Shown here in pieces: positions 4,810-39,079 of a stretch of 64,000 nt of DNA. Location of the stretch: NCBI GenBank assembly GCA_964430755.1, contig CAYSFT010000001.1, forward strand, positions 31,358 through 95,357, written 5' to 3'. The notes beneath the pieces were generated by a model, which saw only the letters and a list, made by a program, of their open reading frames with translations, was not told where the DNA came from and searched no databases. The translations under genes were made by a program, and so were the position numbers. Positions within the stretch are counted from its first letter, which is position 1; the number at the start of each line of letters is the position of its first letter. This DNA is from an uncultured Lachnospiraceae bacterium (GTDB lineage Bacteria; Bacillota; Clostridia; Oscillospirales; CAG-272).

Positions 4810-5940
4810 TTATAAGTTTTTGTTTTTAAAATACTGAAAATATCCGCATTTTATCATGCCGTTGTAAAGCGTGCGTACCTTATCGGCACGGCGACCGTAC
4901 AAACGCTCAAAATCGGGAACGGACGTCAGAATATAGATCTGCCACGGCGCAAGACGCGCAAAACAGCGTCCCATAGCACGGTACAACGCCTCAACCTCAC
5001 GCATATCGGATAGACGCTCACCGTACGGTGGATTGCAAACTATCGTTGCGCGCCTATCAGCTTTAACGATCTGCGTTGCATCACGTTCGAAGCATTTTAT
5101 GTGCGCGCCCATATCGGCACGCTTGATGTTCGCGCGTGCAAGATCGACCATGTGCGGATCAATATCGCTTGCATAAACCTCAAAATCGGTGTCACGCTTA
5201 AAGCTCTCTGCTTCCTCACGTGCATCCTTCCAAATCTTTTCGGGTATGTCGTAAAACTCCTCTGCCGCGAAATTACGTCCGAGTCCGGGCGCAGTACCTG
5301 TCATCATCATAGCAGCCTCAATAGCGATCGTACCCGAGCCGCAAAACGGATCCCACAAAAGCACCTCATCGCGCGGACGTGACAGCTTGACCATCGCCGC
5401 CGCAAGGGTTTCGCGAAGCGGAGCAACACCTGCCGCAGGACGGTATCCGCGCTTGTGCAGTGCAACTCCGGAGGTATCAATCATAAGCGTTGCAGTGTCC
5501 TTTAAAATGAAAAACTCAACCTGATATTTAACACCCTCTTCCTTGAACCATGAAACTCCGTATTCGCCGGACAAGCGTTCAACGATCGCCTTTTTGACGA
5601 TACTCTGACAGTCGGGTATACTCGTCAGTGCCGATTTGATGCTGTGACCTTTAACGGGAAATGCATCATCCTCTGCGATCCATGCTTCCCAAGGAAGTGA
5701 GTTTGTTCCGTCGAATAACTCCGTAAATGTCGCGGCACGGAAGCTTCCCATTTTTATATAAAGTCGCTCTGCAAAACGCAGGTTTATGTTACAGCGCGCA
5801 ATTGCCGCCATATCGCCGCGAAATGTAACGCGCCCGTCAATTGTTTCTATACGCTCGTAACCGAGGGCATCAATCTCCTCGCCGAGCAATGCCTCAAGCC
5901 CGAAAAGGCAGGTGGCAACGTATTCATATTTGGTGGTCAT
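4810..5940 (-). CDS. THUMP-domain class I SAM-dependent RNA methyltransferase (RlmL/YpsC-like)
   Basis: N-terminal THUMP-like region, SAM motif I DPFCGSGTIAIEAA and catalytic NPPYGERL. Confidence 0.8.
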   Translation of the reverse strand: MTTKYEYVATCLFGLEALLGEEIDALGYERIETIDGRVTFRGDMAAIARCNINLRFAERLYIKMGSFRAATFTELFDGTNSLPWEAWIAEDDAFPVKGHSIKSALTSIPDCQSIVKKAIVERLSGEYGVSWFKEEGVKYQVEFFILKDTATLMIDTSGVALHKRGYRPAAGVAPLRETLAAAMVKLSRPRDEVLLWDPFCGSGTIAIEAAMMMTGTAPGLGRNFAAEEFYDIPEKIWKDAREEAESFKRDTDFEVYASDIDPHMVDLARANIKRADMGAHIKCFERDATQIVKADRRATIVCNPPYGERLSDMREVEALYRAMGRCFARLAPWQIYILTSVPDFERLYGRRADKVRTLYNGMIKCGYFQYFKNKNL

Positions 5941-9391: not shown

Positions 9392-10171
9392 TTACGGTTT
9401 ATTTCTGTATTTTAACGGGGAGACACCCATTCTCTTTTTGAAGAGTCTTGAAAAATAAGTATAATTAGGTATTCCGACCGATGTGGCGATCGTTGAGACG
9501 CTTTCATCACTCTCTCGAAGAAGAGCCGCAGCCTTGTGGATGCGTCTTCTGCTTATATATTCATTAACAGTACATTCAAAATAAGAGTGAAAAGCCTTGT
9601 AAAGCGAATTTCTTGAAACATACAGATAGTTGCAAAGCTGATCAATTGAAAGATCGGAAGCCAGATTCTTGTCAATATATTCGAGCGCTCTGACAATAAC
9701 GTCATCACAGTCAACCTCAATTGCACTATCGAAAATTATATATGATATCAGATTAATGAGGTTTGCCATCTGTTTATCGGAAAGAGAGCCCATCATCGCA
9801 TACTGAGGATCGTTTTCGGAATCCCCGATAACAACATCATTGTTTGGCCTTACGCGGCCTATCATTATAATTCCGACAACTGTGTGATTCTTGATAACGG
9901 GAACGGCTGTGTCAAGCAGTCCTGCGTGGCAGATATGTGAAACGGGACGCTTTTCTTTCATACAGCGGCTGATAAGATCCATATCTGAGCAGCTGCACAA
10001 TGCACGTCCTTCGGCAGTTTCCTGCACCTGCGTACAAATAATATCGGTTTGTCTTATTTGCTTGTATAAATAGTTACTGTGCGTATCCGTAAAACCCATG
10101 CTGAGTTCAGTCAGACCGTAAAGATTGTCTATTATCGCTTTTATCTTTTCAACGTCATATCTTATATTCAT
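9392..10171 (-). CDS. AraC-family transcriptional regulator with N-terminal PocR-type sensor domain
   Basis: HICHAGLLDTAVPV (PocR-like) and a C-terminal AraC double HTH (...SRNSLYKAFHSYF...STIATSVGIPNYTYFSRLFKKRMGVSPLKYR). ATG at 10171 is preceded by a GGGGGTGG RBS. Confidence 0.75.
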   Translation of the reverse strand: MNIRYDVEKIKAIIDNLYGLTELSMGFTDTHSNYLYKQIRQTDIICTQVQETAEGRALCSCSDMDLISRCMKEKRPVSHICHAGLLDTAVPVIKNHTVVGIIMIGRVRPNNDVVIGDSENDPQYAMMGSLSDKQMANLINLISYIIFDSAIEVDCDDVIVRALEYIDKNLASDLSIDQLCNYLYVSRNSLYKAFHSYFECTVNEYISRRRIHKAAALLRESDESVSTIATSVGIPNYTYFSRLFKKRMGVSPLKYRNKP

Positions 10172-10358
10172 CCGCAGCCACCCCCTTTGCATAATGATAC
10201 TATAAACTTTTCAAATTGTCAAGATGTTTTTTTGTTTTTTTGCACACCGGGAAGAAAAGGCAAAAAACAGTGAAGATTTGTCTATTGTAATTCGCGTCAA
10301 GTTGTGATATAATAAAATTTAGATACAATTTTGAACCCATGGCAAAGGAGAAAAAAAC

Positions 10359-11231
10359 ATGAATTTTACAGCAGCTCTATGCATCCTGCTAATAACTATA
10401 ACCACATCAATTCAAAATATATTAAAAAAGCAATACGGCAAACGAAAAAACAGCAGCAGCGTATACATTTTCAGCTCACTGACGGTTTTCAGTGCATTGG
10501 CAGTCTTTTTCATAAGAGGACTTATCACAAACACGCTGAGCTTTGACATAGGAATTCTTCCCTATGCGATTATATTCGCAACCGCATATTGTGCGGCAGC
10601 CATCTTCAATCTGATCGCAATTCAATGCGGCTCGCTTTCACTGACTTCCCTGATCGTTTCATACTCACTGATGATACCAACCCTTTACGGCTTGATATTT
10701 AACGGCGATCAGGTTAATGAGTTCTTTTACATAGGTCTTGCATTCCTGCTTCTCAGCCTCTTATTTGTTAACAGAACCTCCGGCGGAGACGTTAAAATAA
10801 CATTAAAGTGGCTTATCTGCGTTATAATTGCTTTCGTCGGAAACGGCATCTGCTCAACAGTACAGCCCGAGCAAAGTAAAATATTCGAAAACAAATATGA
10901 TGATACCTTTATGGCGATCGCGCTTGCGATAGTTTTCATAGTACTCCTCGTTTTTGCACTTATTAAGGACAGAAAAATCTTCCTCCCGACGGTAAAAACG
11001 AACGCACACTTGATGGTGCTCTGCGGTCTTTCAAACGCTGTTGCAAATCTCCTTGTTATGGCGGCGACAGGTCTCGGCGTTAATAAATCGCTCATGTTCC
11101 CGCTTATCAGCGCAGGCGGAATCGTCATCGCATGGATAGTGTCGGTGTTCCTTTACAAGGAAAAGTTAAGTAAAAAACAGCACCTCGGTCTTGCGCTCGG
11201 CGTTATCGCGATTGTGTTCCTCAATTTGTAA
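10359..11231 (+). CDS. Multi-pass membrane transporter, DMT/EamA-like
   Basis: About 10 predicted TM helices with a two-fold internal organisation and an AAAGGAG RBS. The family call is from topology and composition only. Confidence 0.5.
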   Translation: MNFTAALCILLITITTSIQNILKKQYGKRKNSSSVYIFSSLTVFSALAVFFIRGLITNTLSFDIGILPYAIIFATAYCAAAIFNLIAIQCGSLSLTSLIVSYSLMIPTLYGLIFNGDQVNEFFYIGLAFLLLSLLFVNRTSGGDVKITLKWLICVIIAFVGNGICSTVQPEQSKIFENKYDDTFMAIALAIVFIVLLVFALIKDRKIFLPTVKTNAHLMVLCGLSNAVANLLVMAATGLGVNKSLMFPLISAGGIVIAWIVSVFLYKEKLSKKQHLGLALGVIAIVFLNL

Positions 11232-11247
11232 TAGTATAAAGCATAAT

Positions 11248-11287
11248 CCCCTGCTCCGTTTTTGTGAAGCAGGGGAAATTTTTGTTT
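11248..11287 (+). terminator. Rho-independent terminator after the DMT-like gene
   Basis: CCCCTGCT (11248-11255) pairs with AGCAGGGG (11268-11275), followed by AAATTTTTGTTT. Confidence 0.7.
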
Positions 11288-12803
11288 AGTCGATGCTCTT
11301 CATTGTGGGGAACAAGAGCACGTCACGGATTGCGGCAGAGTCTGTGAACAACATACACATTCTGTCAATACCAAATCCGATACCGCCTGTGGGTGGCATA
11401 CCGATCTCAAGTGCATTAAGGAAGTCCTCATCAGTGTGGTTAGCTTCCTCATCGCCCTTTGCGAACTGTTCTTCCTGCGCCTTGAATCTCTCGCGCTGGT
11501 CAATCGGGTCGTTAAGCTCGGAATAAGCGTTAGCCATCTCCCAACCGTTCATGAAGAACTCGAAACGCTCAACATACTCGGGATTATCGGGCTTCTTCTT
11601 GGTAAGCGGCGAAATTTCAACCGGATGATCCATAAGGAAGGTCGGCTGAATGAGATGATGCTCAACAAACTCCTCAAAGAAGAGGTTGAGAATGTCACCC
11701 TTGGTGTGGCGATCCTCGTAGTGAACGCCCTTTTCGTCTGCAACCTTGCGTGCTTCTTCGAGCGTGTGGATATTGCTGAAGTCTACATCTGCATACTTCT
11801 TAACAGCGTCAACCATTGTGATACGCTCAAACGGCTTACCGAGGTCCATTTCAACGCCGTTATAAGTGATCTTGGTCGTACCAAGCACTTCTTGTGCTAC
11901 AAAGCGGTACATATTCTCGGTGAGATCCATCATGCCGTGATAATCGGTGTAAGCCTGATAAAGCTCCATCAGCGTAAATTCAGGATTATGACGGGTGTCA
12001 AGTCCCTCATTACGGAAAACACGTCCGATCTCGTAAACGCGCTCAAGTCCGCCAACGATAAGACGCTTTAAGTATAATTCAAGCGAAATACGAAGCTTAA
12101 AATCCTCGTCGAGAGCGTTGAAGTGAGTTTCAAAAGGTCTTGCAGCCGCACCGCCCGCATTGGAAACGAGCATGGGAGTTTCAACCTCCATGAAGCCCTG
12201 TGAATCGAGGTAACGGCGGATTGTGCTTATAATCTTGGAGCGCTTGACGAATGTATCGCGCGATTCCATATTTGTGATAAGGTCAATATAACGCTGACGG
12301 TAACGAGTGTCGGTATTGGTAAGACCGTGATACTTCTCGGGAAGAATCTGGAGACTCTTTGAAAGGAGTGTCACGCTCTTTGCATGAACCGAGATTTCAC
12401 CTGTCTTTGTTGTGAAAACAGTACCGACAACACCGATAATATCACCGATATCGAGCTTTTTGAAGCCTTTGTATTCTTCCTCGCCGATATCATCACGTGC
12501 AACATAGCACTGAATGTTACCCTTGAGATCGAGCACGTTACAGAACGATGCCTTACCCATAACGCGCTTGGACATCATACGTCCTGCGATGGTAACATCC
12601 TTGCCCTCAAACTCGGCGTAATTTTCCTTTATATCGGTTGTGTGGTGTGTAACGTCATATTTAGTTATAACGAAGGGATCGTTTCCCTGTGCCTGAAGCT
12701 CAGCCAGCTTGTCGCGGCGAACCTGCAGGAGCTGATTTAATTCTTTTTCACTCATGGGAGCTGCTTCTGTTGCCGCCTGAGTGTTTCTTTCGTTTTCTGC
12801 CAT
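11286..12803 (-). CDS. lysS: Lysine--tRNA ligase (class II)
   Basis: Full-length match to the LysS pattern: OB-fold N-terminus, [25 protein letters not shown] and GIGFGIDRM. Confidence 0.95.
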
Positions 12804-13376: not shown

Positions 13377-14606
13377 TTATTCGGCGGCAGAATCAAGTAT
13401 CTCAATAGCCTTTTGCAGCTGAGCATCCTGCTCGTATGTCAGCTTATAAATGCTGATATTTGCAAATTCCTCTGCAATCTCGCAAGGGTGATCGGGCTTG
13501 ACGCCAACTCCCTCGTAATTTTCGGAATACGGAGGATAATAAAGTGCAGTTGAAATACCAAATCCCGAACCGTCAGTCAGCGGTATAATATTCTGCATTG
13601 TGCCCTTGCCGTAAGTTGTTGTTCCGACAAGCTCCGCATAATCATAATCCTGCAAAGCTGAAGCGAAAAGCTCTCCTGCGCTCGCAGTGTTCTCGTTTAT
13701 GATAACGCTGCAGTTAAGCTTAACAGATTCGGCATCGGAAGAAATTGTTTCCTTTTCACCTGATTTATATTCAATGTGAATGATCGGTCCCTCAGGCAAG
13801 AGATAATCAAGAATATCGCAAATAGCATCAAGATTACCGCCCGGATTATTTCTGACGTCGAAAACAAAACGATCAGCACCGTTCTGTTTCAGCTCATCGC
13901 AGGCTGCCTTGAACTGCTCCGGCGTTCCGAGGTCAAATTCAAGAATCTGAATGATACCAACCGTCGGATCGGCTTCGCAAATGCTGCTGACAACCGAAAT
14001 TTCCTTGATTTTCGTGCGCTCAACAGAAAACTCTATTGATTCACCATTGCGAAGCACAGTAAAATTCGCATTCGTTCCTGCCTCACCGAGCATACGGTCA
14101 AGCGCCTCATCGTAACCGATCTCGGAAACATAATCGCCCTCAACGGCAACAATAAAGTCACCGGGAAGAATTCCTGCTTCAAGTGCCGGCGAATCGGGCA
14201 TAACATTGATGACCTCGATCGTATTCTCACTCCACATAACGCGCACACCGATTCCCACATATTCTGCGTTTGTATCGGCCTCGTTATCTGCAAATTCTTC
14301 GGCACTCAGATAATATGCGTATTTATCGCCTGTGCCATAGATATATCCGCGAAGAATATTGTCGGTGATCTCTTTTTCATCAAGCTCGCCAATATATAAT
14401 TCCTCATAGATTTTTTCAACCTCTATGAGTTTTTCGTATTTACCAAGCCCTGCTGAAAATTCATCCAGTGCCGCAGAATATTTCTTATTAAGCGATACTG
14501 CTGTTATCTGGAATGTTACAAGTATCGCAAGAAGCACAAGCATTATTGCCATGCCAAGAGATATTTTCGGTGCTCCGCCTGTACCCTTTTCATTACTGGA
14601 CATCAT
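13377..14606 (-). CDS. S41-family C-terminal processing peptidase
   Basis: N-terminal TM helix, a PDZ region (SPALEAGILPGDFIVAVEG), FDVRNNPGGNL and TASAGELFA motifs. Confidence 0.85.
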   Translation of the reverse strand: MMSSNEKGTGGAPKISLGMAIMLVLLAILVTFQITAVSLNKKYSAALDEFSAGLGKYEKLIEVEKIYEELYIGELDEKEITDNILRGYIYGTGDKYAYYLSAEEFADNEADTNAEYVGIGVRVMWSENTIEVINVMPDSPALEAGILPGDFIVAVEGDYVSEIGYDEALDRMLGEAGTNANFTVLRNGESIEFSVERTKIKEISVVSSICEADPTVGIIQILEFDLGTPEQFKAACDELKQNGADRFVFDVRNNPGGNLDAICDILDYLLPEGPIIHIEYKSGEKETISSDAESVKLNCSVIINENTASAGELFASALQDYDYAELVGTTTYGKGTMQNIIPLTDGSGFGISTALYYPPYSENYEGVGVKPDHPCEIAEEFANISIYKLTYEQDAQLQKAIEILDSAAE

Positions 14607-22707: not shown

Positions 22708-22845
22708 GTGTATCTCCTCAATTTCAGGAAAATTGATAAATCTTTTTGTTTTCAGACTATTTCTTGTCCGCTTAACTTAATTATTATACTATATTATTTG
22801 AAATAAATAAACAATAATTTGTAAATTCGCAGTTTTTGTGGGGGG

Positions 22846-23300
22846 GAGTGGTTAGTGTTTGCGTATAGGAGATACGGTCGCTTTTTGAAAAAAGCTCCGC
22901 AAAAACTTTAATATACGCTATCGCTTCACAGGTCCATCGCATAAAGCTCCGAATATACGCTCTCGGTAGTCGGGAACCCTCCTCACTCCGTCTCCTCCGA
23001 CTCCGTTCGGTATCCCAACGACCGTTTTACGGCAATCGTTCGTTAAATCACATTAATACTGTTTGCGGCACAAAAGTTACATTTATGCAGCAGAAGCTAA
23101 AGATGTCGTTGCAGAAATGGCAACCGATATGCGGTTGTTGGGAAGGTGAGCGAACGCGGAGGAGCGTGAGCGAGATGGGCCCCGACTACCGAGAGCGGTT
23201 TCGAAGCGGAGAACAAACACTCTGTGAGCTTTGCGTTCATTAAAGTTTTTTGCCAGGCTTTTTTTCAAAAAAAGCCGCGTATCCCCTTTATGCTTCGATT
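22846..23300. repeat. Imperfect long inverted repeat (~180-nt arms, ~100-nt centre) in the dnaK-dnaJ spacer; MITE-like or structured-RNA element
   Basis: The left arm (about 22846-23025) is the reverse complement of the right arm (about 23125-23300). There is a perfect 17-nt core, CGCTCTCGGTAGTCGGG (22958-22974) against CCCGACTACCGAGAGCG (23181-23197). GATACGGTCGCTTTTTGAAAAAAGCTCCGCAAAAACTTTAAT matches the reverse complement of 23240-23283 with a few indels. Confidence 0.7.
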
Positions 23301-23383
23301 CCCACTCACTAAAACCAAAAACGGGCTGACTCAGCAAAAAACGAGCCAACCCATTTTGATATTAAAACGTCAACGCTGTATGA

Positions 23384-30404: not shown

Positions 30405-30962
30405 ATGGATATCGGTGCAAGTAGCTACCGCCGTTACCTTGATGGTGATGACACAGGAATAGCAGAGATAATTAAAGAATATAAAGACGGTCTGACCTTA
30501 TATATAAACGGTTACGTGAACAATATTTCCACCGCAGAGGAGCTTATGGAAGAAACATTCTTTAAGCTTGCGACTAAAAAACCGCATTTCTCGGAAAAAT
30601 GTTCATTCAAAACCTGGCTTTTCAGAATCGCACGGAATATTGCAATTGACTATTTAAGACACAATTCAAAGATGGCATCAGATTCCATTGATGAATACGC
30701 CGATTATTTGTCGGAGGAAAAACAGCTTGAAGATGAATATCTCATCAAAGAGCAGAAAATTACCTTACACCGAATAATGAGTCGGCTGAAAAACGAATAC
30801 TTTCAGGTTTTGTATCTGATATATTTCGAGGATTTTTCCAATGCAGAGACAGCGGTGATAATGAAAAAGAACAAACGGCAGATCGAAAATCTCATTTACA
30901 GGGCAAAGCAAGCACTGAAATCAGAGCTTATTAAGGAGGGCTTTGAATATGAAAACTTATGA
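30405..30962 (+). CDS. ECF-type RNA polymerase sigma-70 family factor
   Basis: 185 aa with region 2 (EELMEETFFKL...FKTWLFRIARNIAIDYLR) and region 4 (FEDFSNAETAVIMKKNKRQIENLIYRAKQAL). Confidence 0.85.
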   Translation: MDIGASSYRRYLDGDDTGIAEIIKEYKDGLTLYINGYVNNISTAEELMEETFFKLATKKPHFSEKCSFKTWLFRIARNIAIDYLRHNSKMASDSIDEYADYLSEEKQLEDEYLIKEQKITLHRIMSRLKNEYFQVLYLIYFEDFSNAETAVIMKKNKRQIENLIYRAKQALKSELIKEGFEYENL

Positions 30963-31830
30963 GGAAATCACCGAGCGTGTACTCTCGCGCAGAAACGAAT
31001 ACGAGGAAAAGCAAAAGTTAAACCGAAAAAGAATGATCCAAATCTCATCCGTCGCAGGCTGTTTTGCAGTAGTTTTACTTGTATCAGTCGGAGTCTGGCA
31101 GAGCGAGCATTTCAAGGAGAATCCATTGCTCGACAGTGAAATAATAACAGCAGAGTGCGATGACACCACAAAATCTGCGTCAGGCAATATAAATCAAACA
31201 CATGAAGCCTTTGTTCCGCATTTAATGGAAACCACGTCTCCGCAGGTCACCGATTTGCCGCCCGACGAGGGAAGCTACAGTCAGGGCGGTGATGTTATCG
31301 GCGGATGGTTCATACCTGCACTTCCCTTTGACCGTGAAATCGTTACAGTGGGCGAAGAAATAACCGACGCAGAAGCAAAAGCATATTTCGAGCAAAACGG
31401 TGATGGTATCATCGCAAGCTTATCCTCAAGCGGAGCTGCAACGGATTCGATAACAATATCCGAAAAAGGCTACTGTCACGTAAACTATGACGGAACAGAG
31501 GGTAAATCCTTTGAAGTCAGACAAAACTTCCGCGATTATCTTCTTTACAGCGGCGACAAGCTTATCGCAATAATAACGCTTTACAAAGAAAACGGCGAAA
31601 TCTTCAACACACCGTCCTTCGGAGCAAAGTGGTTTGATGACTACAACGCCTACCTCGAAAATCACAAGGGCGAGGAATTGGTGTATGTTTATGCAAAATG
31701 GTTTGAGATCATAGTTGCGCCCGATAATACGTATTATAACCCCATGGGACTTGATGTCGTTCCGTATTTAGGCGGCGTTGAGAAACCGTATGAAATGTTT
31801 TATCACGAATCGGCTGTCTATATGCCGTAA
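30949..31830 (+). CDS. Membrane-anchored protein, putative cognate anti-sigma factor with uncharacterised extracytoplasmic domain
   Basis: ATG at 30949 overlaps the sigma gene stop, with an AAGGAGGG RBS. There is a short cytoplasmic N-terminus, one TM helix (ISSVAGCFAVVLLVSVGVW) and about 230 aa outside. The role is inferred from position only. Confidence 0.5.
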   Translation: MKTYEEITERVLSRRNEYEEKQKLNRKRMIQISSVAGCFAVVLLVSVGVWQSEHFKENPLLDSEIITAECDDTTKSASGNINQTHEAFVPHLMETTSPQVTDLPPDEGSYSQGGDVIGGWFIPALPFDREIVTVGEEITDAEAKAYFEQNGDGIIASLSSSGAATDSITISEKGYCHVNYDGTEGKSFEVRQNFRDYLLYSGDKLIAIITLYKENGEIFNTPSFGAKWFDDYNAYLENHKGEELVYVYAKWFEIIVAPDNTYYNPMGLDVVPYLGGVEKPYEMFYHESAVYMP

Positions 31831-31845
31831 ATATTAATAACAAAA

Positions 31846-31889
31846 AGAGTTTTCCGCACCAAACAAGTGTAGAAAGCTCTGATTTTTTT
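31846..31889 (+). terminator. Terminator after the anti-sigma-like gene (convergent with pyrD)
   Basis: AGAGTTTTC (31846-31854) pairs with GAAAGCTCT (31872-31880) with 1 mismatch, followed by GATTTTTTT. Confidence 0.5.
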
Positions 31890-32805
31890 ACCAAGGCTGT
31901 ACCGTCGCCGAAATATCGGAAACACGCTCGATACCGTTTGCCTCCATATATTTTGCAATGCCGTCGATAATTTCAAGCGGCAGATACGGATTTGCAAACA
32001 TCGCCGTACCAACGCCAATCGCATCAGCACCGGCAATAAGCATCTCGATCGCATCCTCTGCGCTCGCAACGCCGCCCATACCGAGAAGCGGAAGTGACAC
32101 AGCCTGACGTACCTGCCAGATCATACGCACCGCAACCGGGAAAATCGCAGGACCCGAAAGTCCGCCGACATTATTATGAAGAATCGGACGTTTTGTCTTG
32201 ATGTCGATTCTCATGCCGAGAAGTGTGTTTATAAGCGAAAGCGCATCCGCACCGCCTGCCTCAGCCGCACGTGCCATTTCTGTGATATCGGTCACGTTAG
32301 GCGAGAGCTTGACAATGATCGGCTTCTTTGAGTGATCTTTCACCGAGGATGTGATCTCGTTCACCGTTTTTGCGTTCGTACCGAAAGCAACACCGCCCTC
32401 TTTGACGTTCGGGCAGGAGATATTCATCTCGATGAGGTCAACATCCGTTTCGGAAAGTCTTTCAGCCACTTTGCAGTAATCGGCAATGGTCGAACCGGAA
32501 ATGTTCGCAATAACCGTTGCGCCGTCCTTTTTGAGCCTGGGAAGCTCTTCGTTAATGAACACGTCAAGACCGGGATTCTGCAGTCCTATCGAATTAAGTA
32601 TACCCGACGGAGTTTCTGCAATTCGCGGAGGAGGATTACCGAGACGCGGCGCAAGAGTTGTACCCTTGCAGGCAATTGCACCAAGCTGTTCAGCCTTATA
32701 GTAAGGCGCATATTCCTCGCCGAAGCCGCAGGCACCGCTGACGGTAACGATCGGATTTTTGAATGTAACACCGGCGAAATTCACCGATAAATCTATATTT
32801 TTCAT
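31888..32805 (-). CDS. pyrD: Dihydroorotate dehydrogenase B (NAD+), catalytic subunit
   Basis: Class 1B DHOD pattern: NPIVTVSGACGFG, ISCPNVK, GGLSGPAI and the downstream position after pyrK. Confidence 0.92.
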   Translation of the reverse strand: MKNIDLSVNFAGVTFKNPIVTVSGACGFGEEYAPYYKAEQLGAIACKGTTLAPRLGNPPPRIAETPSGILNSIGLQNPGLDVFINEELPRLKKDGATVIANISGSTIADYCKVAERLSETDVDLIEMNISCPNVKEGGVAFGTNAKTVNEITSSVKDHSKKPIIVKLSPNVTDITEMARAAEAGGADALSLINTLLGMRIDIKTKRPILHNNVGGLSGPAIFPVAVRMIWQVRQAVSLPLLGMGGVASAEDAIEMLIAGADAIGVGTAMFANPYLPLEIIDGIAKYMEANGIERVSDISATVQPW

Positions 32806-33587
32806 TTCCAGATGATCTCCTTTGAATCGAATACGGGGCCGTCAACGCAGACTCTCTTATATTTCTCACCCGTCACGCCGAGATTGTCCTTGAACGTAGT
32901 CTTACAAACGCAGGCAAGACACGCACCGACACCGCAGCCCATACGCTCCTCCATCGAAACCTCACAGCGTACACCTGACTCTTCGCAAATTGCCGCAACA
33001 GCCGCCATCATACCTCGAGGACCGCAAACGTACACCACATCAGCTTCATTGTTCGCAAGTGCATCCTTGACAAGCTCGGTAACAAAGCCTTTTCGTCCGC
33101 TTGAACCGTCATCTGTTATAATCGAGGTCGGGATTCCGTTTGATTCAAATAAATCAAGCGAGTTTATAAGCGAAACATTCCTGAAACCGAAAGCCGCCTT
33201 TGCCGAGCCGCACTTCTTACCAATCGAGAGAAGCGGATAAATACCGATTCCGCCGCCGACAAGCAGTGCACGCTCACCGTCTTTTACCGTAAAACCGTTA
33301 CCGAGCGGGCCAAGCAGACTGACAAGATCACCCTCGCGGCGTTCTGCCATCCACTTTGTACCCTTTCCGCGCACCTCATAGCAGAGTCGAACGCAGTCAC
33401 CGACAGTCTCACAAATCGAGATGGGACGGCGAAGTGTTGTTCCCTCTCCACACATTATGTGAACGATCTGTCCGGGTTTTGCCGCCTTTGCGATCTCGGG
33501 CGATTCTATGAGCATATCGTAAAGCTCTGCCGCCTCGCAGATACGGCGGTTGTGTATAATCTTACCGTTATCCTTTAATGTTTGCAT
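32802..33587 (-). CDS. pyrK: Dihydroorotate dehydrogenase electron-transfer subunit
   Basis: FAD/NAD-binding fold and a C-terminal 2Fe-2S Cys cluster, MGCGVGACLACVC. Overlaps pyrD by 4 nt. Confidence 0.9.
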   Translation of the reverse strand: MQTLKDNGKIIHNRRICEAAELYDMLIESPEIAKAAKPGQIVHIMCGEGTTLRRPISICETVGDCVRLCYEVRGKGTKWMAERREGDLVSLLGPLGNGFTVKDGERALLVGGGIGIYPLLSIGKKCGSAKAAFGFRNVSLINSLDLFESNGIPTSIITDDGSSGRKGFVTELVKDALANNEADVVYVCGPRGMMAAVAAICEESGVRCEVSMEERMGCGVGACLACVCKTTFKDNLGVTGEKYKRVCVDGPVFDSKEIIWK

Positions 33588-33602
33588 TTGTCTGTCTCCC
33601 GA

Positions 33603-34517
33603 TTAAAGCACCGAATTGATATCGTCACGCATTGCGATTACGGCATCACGTGTGCAAGCCTTGAAGTTTGTTCCGTCGTCGCCTGCCTTCTTGTAAGCGC
33701 ACATGAGCGCACGCGAGGAGTTTATGATAGCACCGGACTTATTCTTATCAAAAGCACCGACGATGTCGTTTGCCGCACCGCCCTGTGCACCGTAACCGGG
33801 GATAAGGAAGAATGTGTGAGGCATTGCCGCACGAAGCTCGGTTAACTGCTTCGGATATGTCGCACCGACAACCGCACCGCAGGGACTGTAACCCGATTCG
33901 CTCACGTAAGGTGCGCCCCATTCTTCAACCTTTGCGGCTACCTTACGGTAGAGTGTACCGTCACCGATCTCAAGATCCTGGAAATCACCCGAGGACTTGT
34001 TCGAGGTCTTAACAAGAATAAACATCGACTTGTCATTCTCTGCCGCGATGTCGATAAACGGCTTTACACCGTCTATACCGAGATAAGGATTAACCGTAAC
34101 GCAGTCAACGGGAGTTGCCTTCGCGCTCGAATTAAAGAGCTGTGTTTCACCGATAAACGCCTTTGCATATGCCTCGGCAGTCGAGCCGATGTCGTTGCGC
34201 TTAACATCAAGGATGATATAAAGTCCTGCCGCCTTTGCATATTCGATGGTACGCTCAAGCGCAATAAGTCCCTCAATGCCGTACATTTCATAGAATGCAG
34301 ACTGCGGCTTAACAGCAGGAACAAGCTCTGCCGCAGCATCAATAAGTCCCTTGTTGAATTCAAAAATAGCCTCGCCAGCCGCCTTGAAGGTATCGCCGTA
34401 CTCTGCGATTGCCTTGTCGCGGATATACTGCGGAATATAGTCAAGCACAGGATCGAGTCCCATAACTGTGGGGTTGTTTTTCGCTCTGATTTTTTCAATT
34501 AACGGTTCAAATGACAT
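33603..34517 (-). CDS. pyrF: Orotidine 5'-phosphate decarboxylase (long, type 2)
   Basis: VMGLDP, ILDVKRNDIGST and PGYGAQGG motifs. ATG at 34517 has an AAAGGA RBS; the ORF-track start is a TTG. Confidence 0.9.
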   Translation of the reverse strand: MSFEPLIEKIRAKNNPTVMGLDPVLDYIPQYIRDKAIAEYGDTFKAAGEAIFEFNKGLIDAAAELVPAVKPQSAFYEMYGIEGLIALERTIEYAKAAGLYIILDVKRNDIGSTAEAYAKAFIGETQLFNSSAKATPVDCVTVNPYLGIDGVKPFIDIAAENDKSMFILVKTSNKSSGDFQDLEIGDGTLYRKVAAKVEEWGAPYVSESGYSPCGAVVGATYPKQLTELRAAMPHTFFLIPGYGAQGGAANDIVGAFDKNKSGAIINSSRALMCAYKKAGDDGTNFKACTRDAVIAMRDDINSVL

Positions 34518-34544
34518 GATGATAATTCCTTTCAAATATATAAA

Positions 34545-35849
34545 TTAATTAAGTTCAAAAACACATTTTCCGCCGAGATAGGTTGCATCAACACGTGCCG
34601 CAAAGGTCATGCCGACGAATGGCGTATTCGTTGATTTACCGCGGAGGGATTCCTTTGTGACGGTGTTCTCGCATCCGAGCGTTACTATCGCAAAATCGGC
34701 AGGTGAGCCGACCTCAAGCGTACCGAGTCCGAGCTTGTCGAGTCCCGTGATACGTGCAGGGTTGACTGCCATAAGCTCAATAAGCTTTGCAAGGTCGATG
34801 TGTCCCTGCATAACGAGATTGGTATACGATGCCGCAAACGAGGTCTGCAGTCCGATTATACCGTTGAGTGCAGTTTTAACGTCACCCGACTTTTCCTGGG
34901 CGGAGTGCGGTGCGTGATCGGTTGAGATACAATCTATCGTACCGTCGCAAATCGCTTCGATGACAGCTTTAACGTCATCCTCCGAACGGAGCGGCGGATT
35001 CATCTTGGCGTTAGCACCGTAATAAATAAGATCCGCGTCAGTAAGTGAAAAATAATGCGGACAGGTTTCCGCTGTAACCTTAACGCCGCGTGCCTTCGCT
35101 CTGCGAATACAGTCAAGCGAGCCGCGAGTTGAAACGTGACAGATGTGAAGCCTTGCACCGGTTGCTTCGGCGACCATTATATCGCGTTCCGTCGCAACAT
35201 CCTCGGCGAGATTCGGTATTCCTGGCAGATTCAGCATACGTGAGATCTTGCCCTCATTTATCGCACCGCCCTTGGCAAGTGACATATCCTCGCAGTGTGA
35301 CATGATGAGGTAATCGTTCTTCGCCGCGTTTTTCATGGCTTCATAAAGAAGCTTCGAGGTCATAACAGGCTTGCCGTCATCGGAAAACGCCCATGCACCT
35401 GCATCTTTGAGAGCCGTCATATCTGTGAGCTCCTCGCTTGCAAGACCCTTGGTTATCGCCGCAACGGGAAAAACTCTGCAATCGGCATTTTTCGCCTTAT
35501 CGGCAATATATTCAAGCACCTCGGAACTGTCTGTCGCAGGCTTTGTGTTCGGCATTGCAAAAACGGATGTTACACCGCCTGCCGCCGCACATTTTGAGCC
35601 GGACACAATATCCTCTTTATATTCAAATCCCGGCTCACGCAGATGGACGTGCAGGTCTATCATACCCGGAATGATGAATTTTCCGCTTGCGTCGATGACC
35701 TTATCGGCAGTGAAATCTATCACCTCACCTCGCGGAGCAATGGCGGCTATACGCCCATCCCTCAATGCAACCGTGCAAATCTCGCTGCTTCCGTTTGAAA
35801 GTCTTACGCGGCGCACGTTTGTTATCATTAGATCAAAATGGTTGTTCAT
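34545..35849 (-). CDS. pyrC: Dihydroorotase
   Basis: GMIDLHVHLREPG, the metal-ligand His pair and STDHAPH motif; 434 aa. Confidence 0.92.
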   Translation of the reverse strand: MNNHFDLMITNVRRVRLSNGSSEICTVALRDGRIAAIAPRGEVIDFTADKVIDASGKFIIPGMIDLHVHLREPGFEYKEDIVSGSKCAAAGGVTSVFAMPNTKPATDSSEVLEYIADKAKNADCRVFPVAAITKGLASEELTDMTALKDAGAWAFSDDGKPVMTSKLLYEAMKNAAKNDYLIMSHCEDMSLAKGGAINEGKISRMLNLPGIPNLAEDVATERDIMVAEATGARLHICHVSTRGSLDCIRRAKARGVKVTAETCPHYFSLTDADLIYYGANAKMNPPLRSEDDVKAVIEAICDGTIDCISTDHAPHSAQEKSGDVKTALNGIIGLQTSFAASYTNLVMQGHIDLAKLIELMAVNPARITGLDKLGLGTLEVGSPADFAIVTLGCENTVTKESLRGKSTNTPFVGMTFAARVDATYLGGKCVFELN

Positions 35850-36523
35850 ATTTCTTCTCCCTCTGGCAAATCTGCTTCGGTTTCGTCGGATGTACGGATG
35901 CTTTTCATGCGTGCACCTGAATTTTCATATGCGTAAACATAACCCTCACCTCTGACCGCACGTATCAGTCTCAGTCCCAGCGGTTCGTCAAGCTTCGAGC
36001 GCAGAAAACGCACGTAAACGTCGACTATATTGGTGTCGCGTGCCGTTTCGTCCTGCCACAAATTGTGAAGCAGCTCATCACGTGATATCGTTTCTCCGGG
36101 ACGTGCATGAAGATATTCAAGCAGCGCAAATTCACGCGATGTCAGCTTGACAGTCGTGTCAGCGAAGTTTACTGTTCTGTCCTCCGGCGATATAATAAGC
36201 TGATTTTCTTCATATTCGCCATCATCTGCCCTCTCGCAGATATCGGTTATAAATCCGCGAAGCTCCGAAAGTGAAAACGGGCGCTCAAGAAGTAAAACTC
36301 TCACCTGCTCCGGCATTGCGGCACTAAGTAAGCCGCAGTCTATGAAAATCGCCGCACGCAGACGTCTTATCGGCGGAAGCTCACATAGTCCCTCTGCCGC
36401 GAGGATATGATAATCCTTTGCATCCTCCTCTGCTTCGATAAGTCCCAGCCGCAAAAACTCAAGCTGTAAAAACCGTCCGTATAATGAATCGGATGCCATG
36501 ACCTTGAATTTTAATTTTTCCAT
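35846..36523 (-). CDS. OmpR/PhoB-type winged-helix DNA-binding protein with short, degenerate receiver-like N-terminal domain
   Basis: The C-terminus LTSREFALLEYLHARPGETISRDELLHNLW...NIVDVYVRFLRSKL...IRAVRGEGYVY is a canonical OmpR wHTH. The N-terminus lacks the DD pair and acceptor Asp. The stop overlaps the pyrC start by 4 nt. The start codon is uncertain (36523 ATG, 36499 ATG or 36550 TTG). Confidence 0.7.
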   Translation of the reverse strand: MEKLKFKVMASDSLYGRFLQLEFLRLGLIEAEEDAKDYHILAAEGLCELPPIRRLRAAIFIDCGLLSAAMPEQVRVLLLERPFSLSELRGFITDICERADDGEYEENQLIISPEDRTVNFADTTVKLTSREFALLEYLHARPGETISRDELLHNLWQDETARDTNIVDVYVRFLRSKLDEPLGLRLIRAVRGEGYVYAYENSGARMKSIRTSDETEADLPEGEEI

Positions 36524-36608
36524 ATTAATTACCGCGTCTTTGCGTAGCAAAGACTTCCTTGCCGTCGATATTTTTGTCGGTTTGCTTGCAAATTAGAGGC
36601 GAAGCCGA

Positions 36609-36643
36609 CAAAGACAAAATTTCGTCGCGTGAATTTTTCACGC
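36609..36643 (-). terminator. Candidate terminator hairpin downstream of the asparaginase gene
   Basis: Minus strand: GCGTGAAAAATTCACGC (36643-36627) followed by GACGAAATTTTGTCTTTG. The T-tract is weak. Confidence 0.4.
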
Positions 36644-37669
36644 TTACCACGCTATCTTCTCGCTCGCAATTTCACGCTCCATAAAAAGCGAAATCTCATC
36701 GCCCTCATAACCGAGCGAATAAGCAAGTGCGAGCTTCATATATGCACATTCATTTGTCAGTGAAAATATCGGCTTCATTCCGCGATTTATAAGCTCGGCT
36801 GTCGTCGAGTATGTTCCGGATGACGCTCTCATATGCTCGGGAAGCGGAGAGAGAAATACGTCAATACCGCGTTTTTTGCATTTATCAAGCAAATACAGCG
36901 CAGAACGGCGTGTGTAACCGTCTCTGTCGCTTGAACGCTCAACGCAGGCTGTCGCCGAATGGTAGCTTCCGTGCAGTATCGCGCGAATTTCGTGTGACGG
37001 ATCATATGTCGAATAATCAATGCCGACATACGGCTCAATACGCATAACACATTCGTCAAGTCGCTTCAGTGCACCGATAAGCGGATATTCAGCCTGTACC
37101 TTGTACGGTTTTGCCTCTAAGTACGGACACATATCATGAGAGAAGAAATCTCCCGTGAAATTGGCACACTGTCTTAAATGTGCACCGTGATGGAGATATA
37201 TCACGCCGTCCGAATTGCGGTACGGCACATAGACGCCTGCGCCGAATCCTCTCTCGGCAAGCCGGGCAGCCGCACGGAAATTGTCATGACCGTTTGCCCT
37301 CTCGTCCGTCAGCGTATAATCGCTTGAAACAAGGAATATCGGCTTGTTCCACCAACCGGCAAGCGCGAGTGAAAGTAAACTCGATGTATAGGCAAGCGTG
37401 TCGGTTCCGTGTGCAACGATGATTGCAGAATATCCGTCCGGGTCAATTTCCGAAAAAGCTTCGAGTAAACGATTTAACCTCGGAAATGTCATGTTTTCGC
37501 TTAAAATATCGAGCGGATGTGAATATTCAAATTCAACGTCGTTAAAACCGTCGCTGTAAAGTCGCTCGGCAAGTAGTGAAACCGTATTCTTTCCGTTTGC
37601 CGAGAGGTGACCGTTTTCGTTAACCGTGGTACTTATAGTTCCGCCGGTCATCATGATAAGGATCTTCAT
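36644..37669 (-). CDS. Asparaginase (type I-like L-asparaginase/glutaminase family)
   Basis: Begins MKILIMMTGGTIS (TGGTI catalytic Thr motif) and contains HGTDTL. ATG at 37669 has a GGAGG RBS. Confidence 0.75.
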   Translation of the reverse strand: MKILIMMTGGTISTTVNENGHLSANGKNTVSLLAERLYSDGFNDVEFEYSHPLDILSENMTFPRLNRLLEAFSEIDPDGYSAIIVAHGTDTLAYTSSLLSLALAGWWNKPIFLVSSDYTLTDERANGHDNFRAAARLAERGFGAGVYVPYRNSDGVIYLHHGAHLRQCANFTGDFFSHDMCPYLEAKPYKVQAEYPLIGALKRLDECVMRIEPYVGIDYSTYDPSHEIRAILHGSYHSATACVERSSDRDGYTRRSALYLLDKCKKRGIDVFLSPLPEHMRASSGTYSTTAELINRGMKPIFSLTNECAYMKLALAYSLGYEGDEISLFMEREIASEKIAW

Positions 37670-37683
37670 ATAAAGCCTCCGAA

Positions 37684-38238
37684 TCAACTCAAAGCTCCGT
37701 CAAGCTCCGATTTTATTTTTTTCATATCGATAAGCATATCCTCTTTTTTGTGAGGATCGCGAAGAAGCGCCGAGGGATGGTAAACGGCACATATGCGCTT
37801 ACCGTTTCGCTCATACCATACGCCGTGCTCTTTTGTGATCTTGAAGTCGGGCTTTATGAGTCTCATTGCGGAAATTCGTCCGAGACAAACAATAAGCTCG
37901 GGATCAATGAGCTTTATCTGCTCATCAAGATAACCGATACAAGCATCCTCCTCAGCCGGAAGCGGATCACGGTTCTTCGGCGGACGGCATTTTAATATAT
38001 TTGCTATGTAAACGTCCTCGCGTGGTATATCAACAGCCTCAAGGAAACGGTCAAGTAACTTTCCTGCCGCGCCGACAAACGGTATTCCCGAAAGGTCCTC
38101 TTTTTCTCCGGGCGCTTCACCGACAAACATCAGTCTTGCGTTTTTATTGCCGGTTCCGAACACACAGTTGGTACGCGTTGCAGACAGTGCACACTTTTCG
38201 CATGATGCACAAGTGGCTTCAAGCTGTTCCCATGTCAT
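37684..38238 (-). CDS. Uracil-DNA glycosylase, family 4
   Basis: CxxCxxC Fe-S cysteines (CASCEKC), GEAPGEKED motif A, PFVGAAGKLL and HPSALLR motif B. Confidence 0.85.
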   Translation of the reverse strand: MTWEQLEATCASCEKCALSATRTNCVFGTGNKNARLMFVGEAPGEKEDLSGIPFVGAAGKLLDRFLEAVDIPREDVYIANILKCRPPKNRDPLPAEEDACIGYLDEQIKLIDPELIVCLGRISAMRLIKPDFKITKEHGVWYERNGKRICAVYHPSALLRDPHKKEDMLIDMKKIKSELDGALS

Positions 38239-38467
38239 GGCTAAAATTCCTTTCAATTTATGTAATATTTATATTATACCATATATTTTCCTTAAAAGAT
38301 ATAGTTTTTTGAAAATTTTTAATTTTTTAATAATACTTACACAGTGCTATTAGGCGTATGGAAAAAATTTAGGGGTTTCAATTTTGCGCCTATTGGATTA
38401 TAATATTAGTAAGACCATTTCGAGTGCACACCGCACCGTGTCCAATATACAAGAAAGGATCACCCCG

Positions 38468-39079
38468 ATGGAACATATACTCATAAGTCCCGGCAAGCTC
38501 AAGCTGATGCTAACAAAATCCGATCTCGACAGATACGATCTCGACTGCGAAACGATGGACAGCGAAGACACACTGACGCGTCAGGCATTCAGAGAGCTGC
38601 TTGCAGACGTAAAACGGGTTTCGGGCTTCGACGCGGCGGATGACAAGGTATTCATTCAGCTCTACCCATCCCGTGACGGAGGAGCAGAAATATACATAAC
38701 CAGACTCACGCCAAAGCAAGAGGAAAAATCACGCAAGGATGACACTATAAAATTAACAAATGTCTACCGTTTCGATTCAATGGGAGCATTGCTCGAGGTC
38801 TGTTCATATATAAAAGCGCAAAGCATCATCAAAGGAAAACACAATTCCCTGCCAACCTCAAGCTCTGCATGGCAAGCGGACGGAAAATATTATCTCATCT
38901 GCGAGGACAGCGTCACTTACCGCGAATATCTGCGGCTTGGCAGAAGCGATCGTTTTTCTGAATACATCGGAAGCTTTGGGAAACGCCTTCAGTCATCTGC
39001 CGCTCTGCCATACGTGAAAGAGCACTGCAGCTGCTTTTGTGAGCATAATGCGATCACTGCGCTTTCAGAGTTTGCCTGA
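38468..39079 (+). CDS. MecA-like adaptor protein (tentative)
   Basis: The N-terminal pattern MEHILISPGKLKLMLTKSDLDRYDL...FIQLYPSRDGGAEIYITRL resembles the MecA N-domain. ATG at 38468 has an AAAGGA RBS. Confidence 0.45.
   Translation: MEHILISPGKLKLMLTKSDLDRYDLDCETMDSEDTLTRQAFRELLADVKRVSGFDAADDKVFIQLYPSRDGGAEIYITRLTPKQEEKSRKDDTIKLTNVYRFDSMGALLEVCSYIKAQSIIKGKHNSLPTSSSAWQADGKYYLICEDSVTYREYLRLGRSDRFSEYIGSFGKRLQSSAALPYVKEHCSCFCEHNAITALSEFA

Follow-up and report, generated by a model that had tools for sequence, protein, structure and literature searches.

Atypical response regulators without the acceptor aspartate are common, and the switching of most of them is not understood; where they are identified computationally as receivers without one or more of the five catalytic residues they are called pseudo-receivers, and OmpR-family proteins dimerise through the α4-β5-α5 face (PMC12632262). 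Control of such domains by ligands or by redox state has precedents among OmpR-type regulators (PMC12632262, PMC4395418, PMC5965902). RitR of Streptococcus pneumoniae, a kinase-less orphan of the CovR-like branch with an OmpR-type winged helix-turn-helix (wHTH) and no acceptor aspartate, is a redox sensor (PMC5965902) and has an aspartate in place of the usual Thr/Ser (PMC4395418). HP1043 (HsrA) of Helicobacter pylori and ChxR of Chlamydia trachomatis are phosphorylation-independent orphans forming constitutive dimers through α4-β5-α5, and they are the two cases cited with missing secondary structure near the pocket (PMC4395418), while in JadR1 and RedZ of Streptomyces the pseudo-receiver of an OmpR-type or related atypical regulator binds the end product of the pathway (PMC12632262). 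A regulator encoded within, or at the head of, pyrimidine (pyr) operons of Firmicutes is PyrR, and our literature searches found no OmpR-type regulator tied to pyrC or to pyrimidine operons. Here we describe a gene of this latter kind in a stretch of 64,000 nucleotides, called the window throughout, from an uncultured Lachnospiraceae bacterium (assembly GCA_964430755.1, contig CAYSFT010000001.1, positions 31,358 to 95,357): it encodes a protein, REG, in which an OmpR-type DNA-binding domain follows a minimised pseudo-receiver, and it is packed against the start of pyrC.

REG stands for the regulator encoded by the minus-strand open reading frame (ORF) 35846..36550. Its coding sequence is taken here as 35846..36523 on the minus strand, that is 225 residues from ATG 36523 to the stop TGA 35846-35848, and residues are numbered from this ATG on the basis of the ORF list and of the starts of homologues, the N-terminus of which reads MEKLKF or MKYKV. 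The alternative start TTG 36550, to which the better Shine-Dalgarno (SD) sequence belongs in this genome (AAGGAAG, 36554-36560), would give the 234-residue form called by NCBI, for which the exact sequence is on record (P0121). The reading that we put forward, and to which we give about an even chance, is that REG is an orphan, phosphorylation-independent factor of the OmpR/PhoB family with a reduced CovR/RitR-like receiver, co-transcribed with the pyr genes and acting in feedback upon them. Its DNA-binding half is conventional, as the first-pass annotation had stated: residues 108-200 (35924..36202, minus strand) score 79.3 bits with PF00486 Trans_reg_C (cut-off 26.2; E 2.3e-22), and the closest solved DNA-binding domain is that of CovR (3rjp; 41% identity, E 3.8e-23, TMt 0.86, root-mean-square deviation 2.5), followed by RitR. 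The modelled wHTH superposes on the DNA-binding domains of CovR, PhoP, VicR and PhoB with TMt values of 0.77-0.86.

The N-terminal domain, residues 1-95 (36239..36523, minus strand), is another matter, and its description as a minimised pseudo-receiver draws upon AlphaFold, Foldseek, hhalign, column conservation and substitution rates. The AlphaFold model comprises β1 (residues 5-10), α1 (13-25), a β2 of two residues, β3 (40-44), β4 (57-61), a short α4 (64-69), β5 (75-79) and α5 (from 85), hence five strands but only three helices in a predicted structure for which the Foldseek matches have weak E values of 0.08-0.4. Helices α2 and α3 are missing from the model, with short loops in their place, which accounts for the shortfall of about 23 residues with respect to a receiver domain that is seen both in the profile-profile alignment and in the model; the first-pass annotation had put it at about 20. 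When the domain is modelled alone, the predicted local distance difference test score (pLDDT) is 90.6; over the full protein it is 79. No Pfam family was found for the N-terminal half at E<=0.01 when the whole protein was scanned, and 17 isolated N-domains gave no Pfam match at E<=10, PF00072 Response_reg included; likewise, no NCBIfam model reaches its cut-off for REG, the partial matches all beginning at about residue 79, in β5. Nearly all the Foldseek neighbours of the domain are nonetheless receivers (TMq 0.60-0.69), and the predicted full-length protein can be aligned over its whole length with OmpR-family regulators, the atypical CosR, RitR, GlnR and HP1043 being among the best-ranked. 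Aligned with hhalign, the N-domain alone matches CovR-like receivers over 90 columns (probability 79%, E 1.6e-5), anchored by the α1 motif R-x-L-x-LEL and the β5-α5 motif (K/R)PF...EL; the same two signatures, R-x-L-x-L-E-L and (K/R)PF-x-x-x-EL, are common to REG and the canonical regulators found in loci L003-L070. By the published definition of a pseudo-receiver (PMC12632262), the catalytic residues are gone in REG, and recognition as a receiver is absent with Pfam and weak by profile-profile comparison and predicted fold. We conclude from the models and profiles that the domain is receiver-derived despite the lack of a Pfam match, and sequence comparison makes canonical regulators of the CovR/ArlR type its probable ancestor. 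With these REG has in common the CovR-like wHTH, the α1 motif in the form (A/G)R-F/M-L-x-LEL, and the (K/R)PF..EL of β5-α5; they differ in their complete receiver, which has the acidic pair, the acceptor aspartate, the threonine and the lysine, and in the possession of a cognate histidine kinase.

How far the phosphorylation pocket has been dismantled can be followed in the profile-profile alignment to canonical OmpR regulators, for which two independent hhalign runs were made. The acidic pair of receivers is replaced by A10 and S11, the former Ala in 31/31 family members and the latter variable, while the third acidic position, D12, is retained in 29/31. The acceptor position falls on A42 (A, V, L or I in the family) or, in the alternate register, on A43, an invariant Ala; because it is Ala both ways, REG qualifies as an aspartate-less receiver (ALR), a class in which Ala makes up 9% of the substitutions at the acceptor (PMC4395418). 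The lysine of the KPF motif has become R81 (Arg in 28/33 members, Lys in 5/33), and the short homologues of the wider group considered below have an almost unvarying RPF at this place. For the Thr/Ser position there are two candidates, S67 according to hhalign (Ser or Thr in 21/33) and D62 according to the modelled end of the strand; the latter may match the aspartate that RitR has there. D62 opens an invariant motif specific to the family, D62-C63-G64, in the β4-α4 loop. The model ends β3 with E44, which had suggested this glutamate as a phosphomimetic acceptor; the idea was rejected because the pattern hhhhD-A-[DE] of distant homologues puts E44 two residues past the acceptor. The loss of the metal-ligand acidic pair and of the acceptor extends to every member of the REG family. 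The first-pass annotation had noted, by eye, no acidic pair in β1, no acceptor in β3 and an arginine in KPF, and had allowed that a profile alignment might still reveal an intact acceptor and acidic pocket; the three substitutions held and neither the acceptor nor the pocket appeared.

Among the aspartate-less atypical OmpR-family regulators (RitR, HP1043/HsrA, ChxR, GlnR, CosR), REG is a strongly minimised variant. HP1043, the structure of which (2hqr) is a full-length fold match of REG, and ChxR are still detected as receivers in proteins of about 220-230 residues, have local deletions only and act on unrelated targets; the loss in REG is bigger, amounting to about 23 residues and two helices, and leaves it more reduced than either. 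RitR, the structures of which (5u8k, 5u8m, 5vfa) are among the best matches of REG in both sequence and fold, differs in having a full-length (βα)5 receiver seen by Pfam, a sensing cysteine in the linker and a role in iron uptake control. REG has neither α2 nor α3, and its sole invariant cysteine lies in the β4-α4 loop and not in the linker. JadR1 and RedZ are more distant comparisons, since they belong to actinobacterial antibiotic clusters, have full-size pseudo-receivers and bind ligands demonstrably, something that for REG is a hypothesis only.

In evolutionary terms, the slow change of the N-domain argues that it is functional rather than decaying. The ratio of nonsynonymous to synonymous substitution rates (dN/dS) is 0.07-0.15 for this domain versus 0.05-0.13 for the wHTH, and the mean pairwise identity is 0.60 versus 0.69. 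A comparison of 17 N-domains with identities as low as about 50% shows 19 invariant positions; D12, R17, E22, G27, A43, E44, G45, E48, R53, R54, D62, C63, G64, P71, E72, R/K81, P82, F83, E87, R89 and F91 are invariant or nearly so. These residues cover the former active-site loops and the α4-β5-α5 face, with invariant charged and Cys residues at the ends of β1, β3, β4 and β5. Clustering at 90% identity gives about 85 groups, which share 50-95% identity with the REG of the window; every one is full length and has PF00486 as its only domain match. Judged from these sequences, strong purifying selection acts on the domain. Despite the loss of two helices and of the catalytic residues, its rate of evolution is as low as that of the DNA-binding domain, so that function must reside in the core that is left.

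The family itself belongs to a narrow uncultured lineage; an exhaustive hidden Markov model (HMM) search over 1.84 billion representatives reduces its core to about three representatives at 50% identity. The same search returned many proteins of 194-221 residues that align end to end at about 25-35% identity and have the pattern RML-LEL ... hhhhDA[DE] ... RPF, and a profile search at E<=1e-10 counted 964 such short OmpR-like proteins. REG forms one sub-branch of this wider group (P0099, P0156-P0294, P0295-P0320), with respect to which it has lost the β3 aspartate and gained the invariant D-C-G motif; none of the 36 wider homologues examined, all of them metagenomic, has a receiver match at E<=1. 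Of the searches based upon the N-domain alone, a word-index protein search gave no matches and a metagenome scan with the N-domain alignment gave four loci, while a profile scan of genome contigs with the full-length alignment returned mostly canonical regulators and, as true family members, L001 and L002 only.

Turning to the genomic setting, REG is followed on the minus strand by pyrC, coding for dihydroorotase (34545..35849; Pfam match and NCBIfam TIGR00857, 399.7 bits), pyrF, for orotidine monophosphate decarboxylase of subfamily 2 (33603..34535; TIGR02127, 278.7 bits), and pyrK and pyrD, for the electron-transfer subunit (32802..33587; PF10418, NF000799) and the catalytic subunit (31888..32805; PF01180 at 6.6e-86, NF005574 with 426 bits) of dihydroorotate dehydrogenase B. 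The spacings are 9 nt between pyrC and pyrF, 15 nt between pyrF and pyrK and -4 nt between pyrK and pyrD. A direct reading confirms the ATGA overlap that had been reported between REG and pyrC (35846..35849, minus strand), in which the stop TGA 35848-35846 lies on the start ATG 35849-35847; the SD of pyrC, GAGGGAGAAG at 35854-35863, falls within the final codons of REG. Directly upstream of REG is a divergent gene of the asparaginase/GatD family (36644..37687, minus strand; PF00710 at 9.1e-27), the activity of which is uncertain since only the N-terminal Pfam domain matches and the NCBIfam models for type I asparaginase, type II asparaginase and GatD are all far below cut-off. Before it stands the first gene of the string, for a family-4 uracil-DNA glycosylase (UDG; 37684..38238, minus strand; TIGR00758, 206 bits), with a probable start at ATG 38238 suggested by L097 and L098.

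The only conserved promoter of this string lies before UDG, not before REG. It is an extended -10 element, TGGTATAAT (38273..38281, minus strand), about 30-35 nt upstream of the UDG start and present in most of the related loci that show this region; its longer form TATGGTATAATATA (38270-38283) occurs once in the window, where none would be expected by chance, and an A/T-rich tract follows further upstream (about 38300-38335). The asparaginase-like gene and REG are separated in the window by a spacer of 93-120 nt that is particular to it (36524..36643, minus strand) and holds a hairpin GCGTGAAAAATTCACGC at 36627-36643, the inverted repeat TTTGTCGG..CCGACAAA, the SD-like AAGGAAG at 36554-36560 and a palindrome GTCTTTGCTACGCAAAGAC at 36536-36554; no promoter-like site was scored within it. 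It is missing from the closest relatives, L097 and L098, in which only 5-6 nt separate the stop of the asparaginase-like gene from the start of REG; the two genes overlap in L094 and are 20-49 nt apart in six other loci, the gaps flanking REG being often too short for a promoter. By this comparison the spacer is a local insertion of the window, and the most economical reading of the gene order is a single transcript comprising UDG, the asparaginase-like gene, REG, pyrC, pyrF, pyrK and pyrD. Consequently, REG does not head the pyr operon as first annotated, being internal to a co-directional string.

The loci related to REG were recovered from NCBI metagenome-assembled genomes (MAGs) and from ENA, Logan and JGI contigs, two of them under the name Candidatus Flemingiibacterium and the others as 'Clostridia bacterium'. 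The common order is Band7-Band7-MecA-UDG, then a Mem_trans permease and/or the asparaginase-like gene, then REG-pyrC-pyrF-pyrK-pyrD; the permease, of the auxin-efflux-carrier family, accompanies or replaces the asparaginase-like gene in some relatives. In 15 distinct loci (the window, L001, L002, L081, L082, L083/84, L087/88, L089, L090, L094, L095, L096, L097, L098 and L099) pyrC comes directly after REG, down to about 50% protein identity, an answer to the question, raised with the initial annotation, of how often the two genes are linked. Close packing is usual. The exact ATGA overlap recurs with pyrC in L081 and L082; it is not conserved, as the spacing between the two genes ranges from -8 to +258 nt. 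Of the coupling first proposed, the tight packing and the pyrC SD inside REG stand, while the four-nucleotide overlap varies. As a whole, the original interpretation survives in the form of an OmpR-type regulator without phosphorylation site or kinase that is packed against pyrC in 15 loci; the position at the operon head does not.

Under the reading that we favour, REG would be made from one transcript together with UDG, the asparaginase-like gene and pyrC-pyrF-pyrK-pyrD, driven by the conserved strong promoter upstream of UDG, and its level would thereby track pyr transcription. A CheY-like core of about 95 residues would keep β1-α1 and α4-β5-α5, with α2, α3, the metal-binding acidic pair and the acceptor aspartate gone. 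In its most likely mode of action, REG would dimerise via the retained α4-β5-α5 face and bind repeated DNA sites, in the manner of the OmpR family. More speculatively, the remodelled loops (D12, A42-A43-E44-G45, E48, D62-C63-G64, R81) might set its activity via a small molecule or a thiol switch, and REG might feed back on the UDG-pyr transcript and/or on the unlinked pyrB, carAB and pyrE. A role of REG in pyrimidine control is plausible, though speculative.

This proposal needs to be qualified in several respects, all of which weigh against it. All the relatives of REG are metagenome-assembled. The AlphaFold model of the full protein has a predicted template-modelling score (pTM) of 0.49, with an interdomain geometry that carries no confidence, and the β3-β4 alignment of the N-domain differs among the two hhalign runs and the model. 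In L085/86 and L093, the gene that overlaps REG by 4 nt is not pyrC but a RACo-like gene (L085 4274-6425; L093 7612-9737), with Raco_middle/RACo_C_ter domains and, in L093, Fer2 as well, which is followed by a gene of metallo-beta-lactamase fold, and there is no pyr gene in the 6-7 kb downstream of REG. The whole neighbourhood of 12 genes is syntenic at the same depth as the adjacency of REG and pyrC, and for this reason the adjacency is modest evidence of function. No operator was found near the pyr genes or in the spacers, the candidate repeats being private to single loci or not enriched, and the A/T-rich sequence ahead of the UDG promoter reads equally well as an UP element.

Some of these observations nourish the strongest of the alternatives, namely that the regulon of REG is unrelated to pyrimidines and that REG stands next to pyrC through inheritance of gene order within a slowly rearranging housekeeping string. 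We regard this as somewhat unlikely, yet it deserves to be taken seriously: the entire block from the two Band7 genes through MecA, UDG and the permease or asparaginase-like gene to REG and pyrCFKD is conserved at one phylogenetic depth, the most constant neighbours of REG are those upstream, on the UDG side, the clade of L085 and L093 has kept REG with RACo-like and metallo-beta-lactamase-fold genes instead of pyrCFKD, and no shared operator accompanies the pyr genes. However, the packing or overlap with pyrC persists to about 50% identity while the genes past pyrD vary freely, and a trans-acting factor may retain its regulon once the genes separate. Moreover, a regulator located within a biosynthetic operon as a rule controls that operon. 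Since the REG proteins of L085 and L093 form one clade in a neighbour-joining tree, their case amounts to a single derived loss of the pyr linkage; this linkage is ancestral and common, not universal.

A second alternative would make REG a thiol or redox switch of the RitR type, in which Cys63, by oxidation or by an intermolecular disulfide, alters dimerisation and DNA binding and links the regulator to the Fe-S flavoenzyme PyrK/PyrD. C63 is indeed invariant (33/33), within a motif missing from the wider short homologues, the structures of RitR, itself a redox sensor (PMC5965902), are among the best matches of REG, and both of the alternative downstream partners are Fe-S proteins, PyrK in one case and the RACo-like protein with its Fer2 domain in the other. 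The sensing residue of RitR, Cys128, nevertheless lies in the interdomain linker, and the linker of REG has no conserved cysteine, C96 being present in 7/33 members only; an oxidant signal is also less obvious for MAGs of strictly anaerobic gut bacteria. We consider this alternative improbable.

Smaller still is the chance that REG is controlled by phosphorylation after all, whether by a distant histidine kinase acting on D12, D37 or D62 or by a Ser/Thr kinase. In favour of this, there are several conserved acidic residues close to the former pocket, the basic residue of KPF is kept as Arg or Lys, position 67 is Ser or Thr in 21/33 members, and Ser/Thr kinase control has been reported for CovR and RitR. 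Against these stand the loss of the metal ligands and of the acceptor in all members and the failure of any receiver profile to match. Nor is there a partner at hand: no HisKA or HATPase_c domain was found in any tested ORF of at least 150 residues in the 64 kb of the window, and no kinase within 6-8 kb of REG in the related loci with called genes, which agrees with the first-pass annotation for the window and leaves its reservation, that a kinase might sit adjacent in other genomes, without support in these relatives. Finally, that the N-domain is a decaying remnant, shortened, without catalytic residues and invisible to Pfam, and REG a non-functional or constitutive DNA-binding stub, is scarcely credible, a pseudogene being ruled out by the dN/dS of 0.07-0.15, near that of the wHTH, and decay being opposed also by the 19 invariant positions, the confident compact fold predicted and the approximately 85 full-length clusters.

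With respect to PyrR, the likeness of REG is one of position, in that both are encoded with the pyr genes; the two proteins are not homologous, PyrR having a phosphoribosyltransferase fold that acts on RNA leaders (RF00515) and REG a wHTH for DNA. A search for PyrR binding loops, advised at the outset, found nothing at gathering score with Rfam, RF00515 included, in the window or in seven related loci, and nothing at E<=5 over 31700-38500; no phosphoribosyltransferase (Pribosyltran) domain was found in the tested window ORFs of at least 150 residues. The broadest form of our proposal is that an uncultured lineage of gut Clostridia controls de novo pyrimidine synthesis via REG and not via PyrR-RNA attenuation, with the core of about 95 residues sensing a metabolite of the pathway or, through Cys63, the redox state. 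Taken in full this is unlikely; if true, it would make REG the first functional handle on the larger, uncharacterised group of short OmpR-like proteins with the signature RML-LEL ... RPF. Were the pyr link alone to hold, Firmicutes would have a transcription-factor route to pyr control beside PyrR attenuation; were it false, REG would count as an orphan regulator of ordinary type within a conserved string of housekeeping genes. The family offers a compact model for the question of what a minimal regulatory receiver is, its core carrying dimerisation, sensing or both, and surveys of pseudo-receivers based upon Pfam would miss this family together with hundreds of related short OmpR-like proteins.

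The search for operators left a number of candidates that deserve mention. Inverted repeats of the TTTGTCGGC type in the spacer upstream of REG were rejected, as 32 were found versus 19 ± 4.8 expected, which is no enrichment, and they are not shared. A palindrome with an SD-like prefix, AAGGAAGTCTTTGCTACGCAAAGAC (36536-36560, minus strand), stands just upstream of REG and has a counterpart in the same position, AAGGAAACTTTTGCTACGCAAAAGT, in L081 (7963-7985), a relative with no more than about 57% identity; the other 98 loci are all without it. Its role may be that of a translational hairpin or of an operator. The triple direct repeat TGTGACTGATC upstream of REG in L085 (3536-3668) was dismissed as an operator for being private to that locus; two of its three copies precede CACTGA with an internal period of 11 nt, an arrangement resembling an OmpR-type site. 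In the 5' leaders between TGGTATAAT and UDG of L085 (about 1985-2010) and L096 (about 5225-5260), GC-rich hairpins followed by T-runs (GCGGAGAATTCTCCGCGTTTTCC, GGCAGGGGGAAATCCCCTGCCTGACTTTTATT) look like leader terminators or attenuators; the leader of the window, of about 28 nt, is too short for such a hairpin.

The long pyr spacers of L083 also invited attention, for they contain two copies of a repeat of about 170 nt that are about 75% identical (9972-10180 between pyrC and pyrF, 11229-11459 between pyrF and pyrK). A 40-nt piece of this repeat is 97.5% identical to part of the unusually long dnaK-dnaJ spacer of the window (676 nt, 22708-23383), in which the stretches 23241-23280 and 22957-22980 stand out, and L001 has a site at 13452-13489. 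A pyr-specific RNA element was thus discarded in favour of a dispersed intergenic repeat, which has no Rfam match and looks like a lineage-specific REP/MITE-like element.

As for the remaining parts of REG, the interdomain linker (residues 96-107; 36203..36238, minus strand) is acidic and variable, with low pLDDT at 103-105, and the wHTH is followed by an acidic, disordered C-terminal tail (residues 201-225; 35849..35923, minus strand; pLDDT <50 at 203-224). Length and sequence of the tail differ among REG relatives: the orthologue in L090 (7001-7930) is extended at its C-terminus by about 100 residues, up to the pyrC start, and P0084 has a long low-complexity tail after its winged helix. The tail is therefore evolutionarily free. 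One protein of 226 residues, P0085, joins a linker, wHTH and tail of REG type (69% identity over the C-terminal half) to 100 unrelated N-terminal residues; found on a contig of 1.7 kb, it may have arisen by a domain swap or from chimeric assembly. Beyond the other end of the string, convergent with the end of pyrD, the window has at 30405-31830 a gene for an ECF-type sigma factor and an overlapping ORF of 295 residues without family match, possibly its anti-sigma factor, a pair that is also found behind pyrD in L097.

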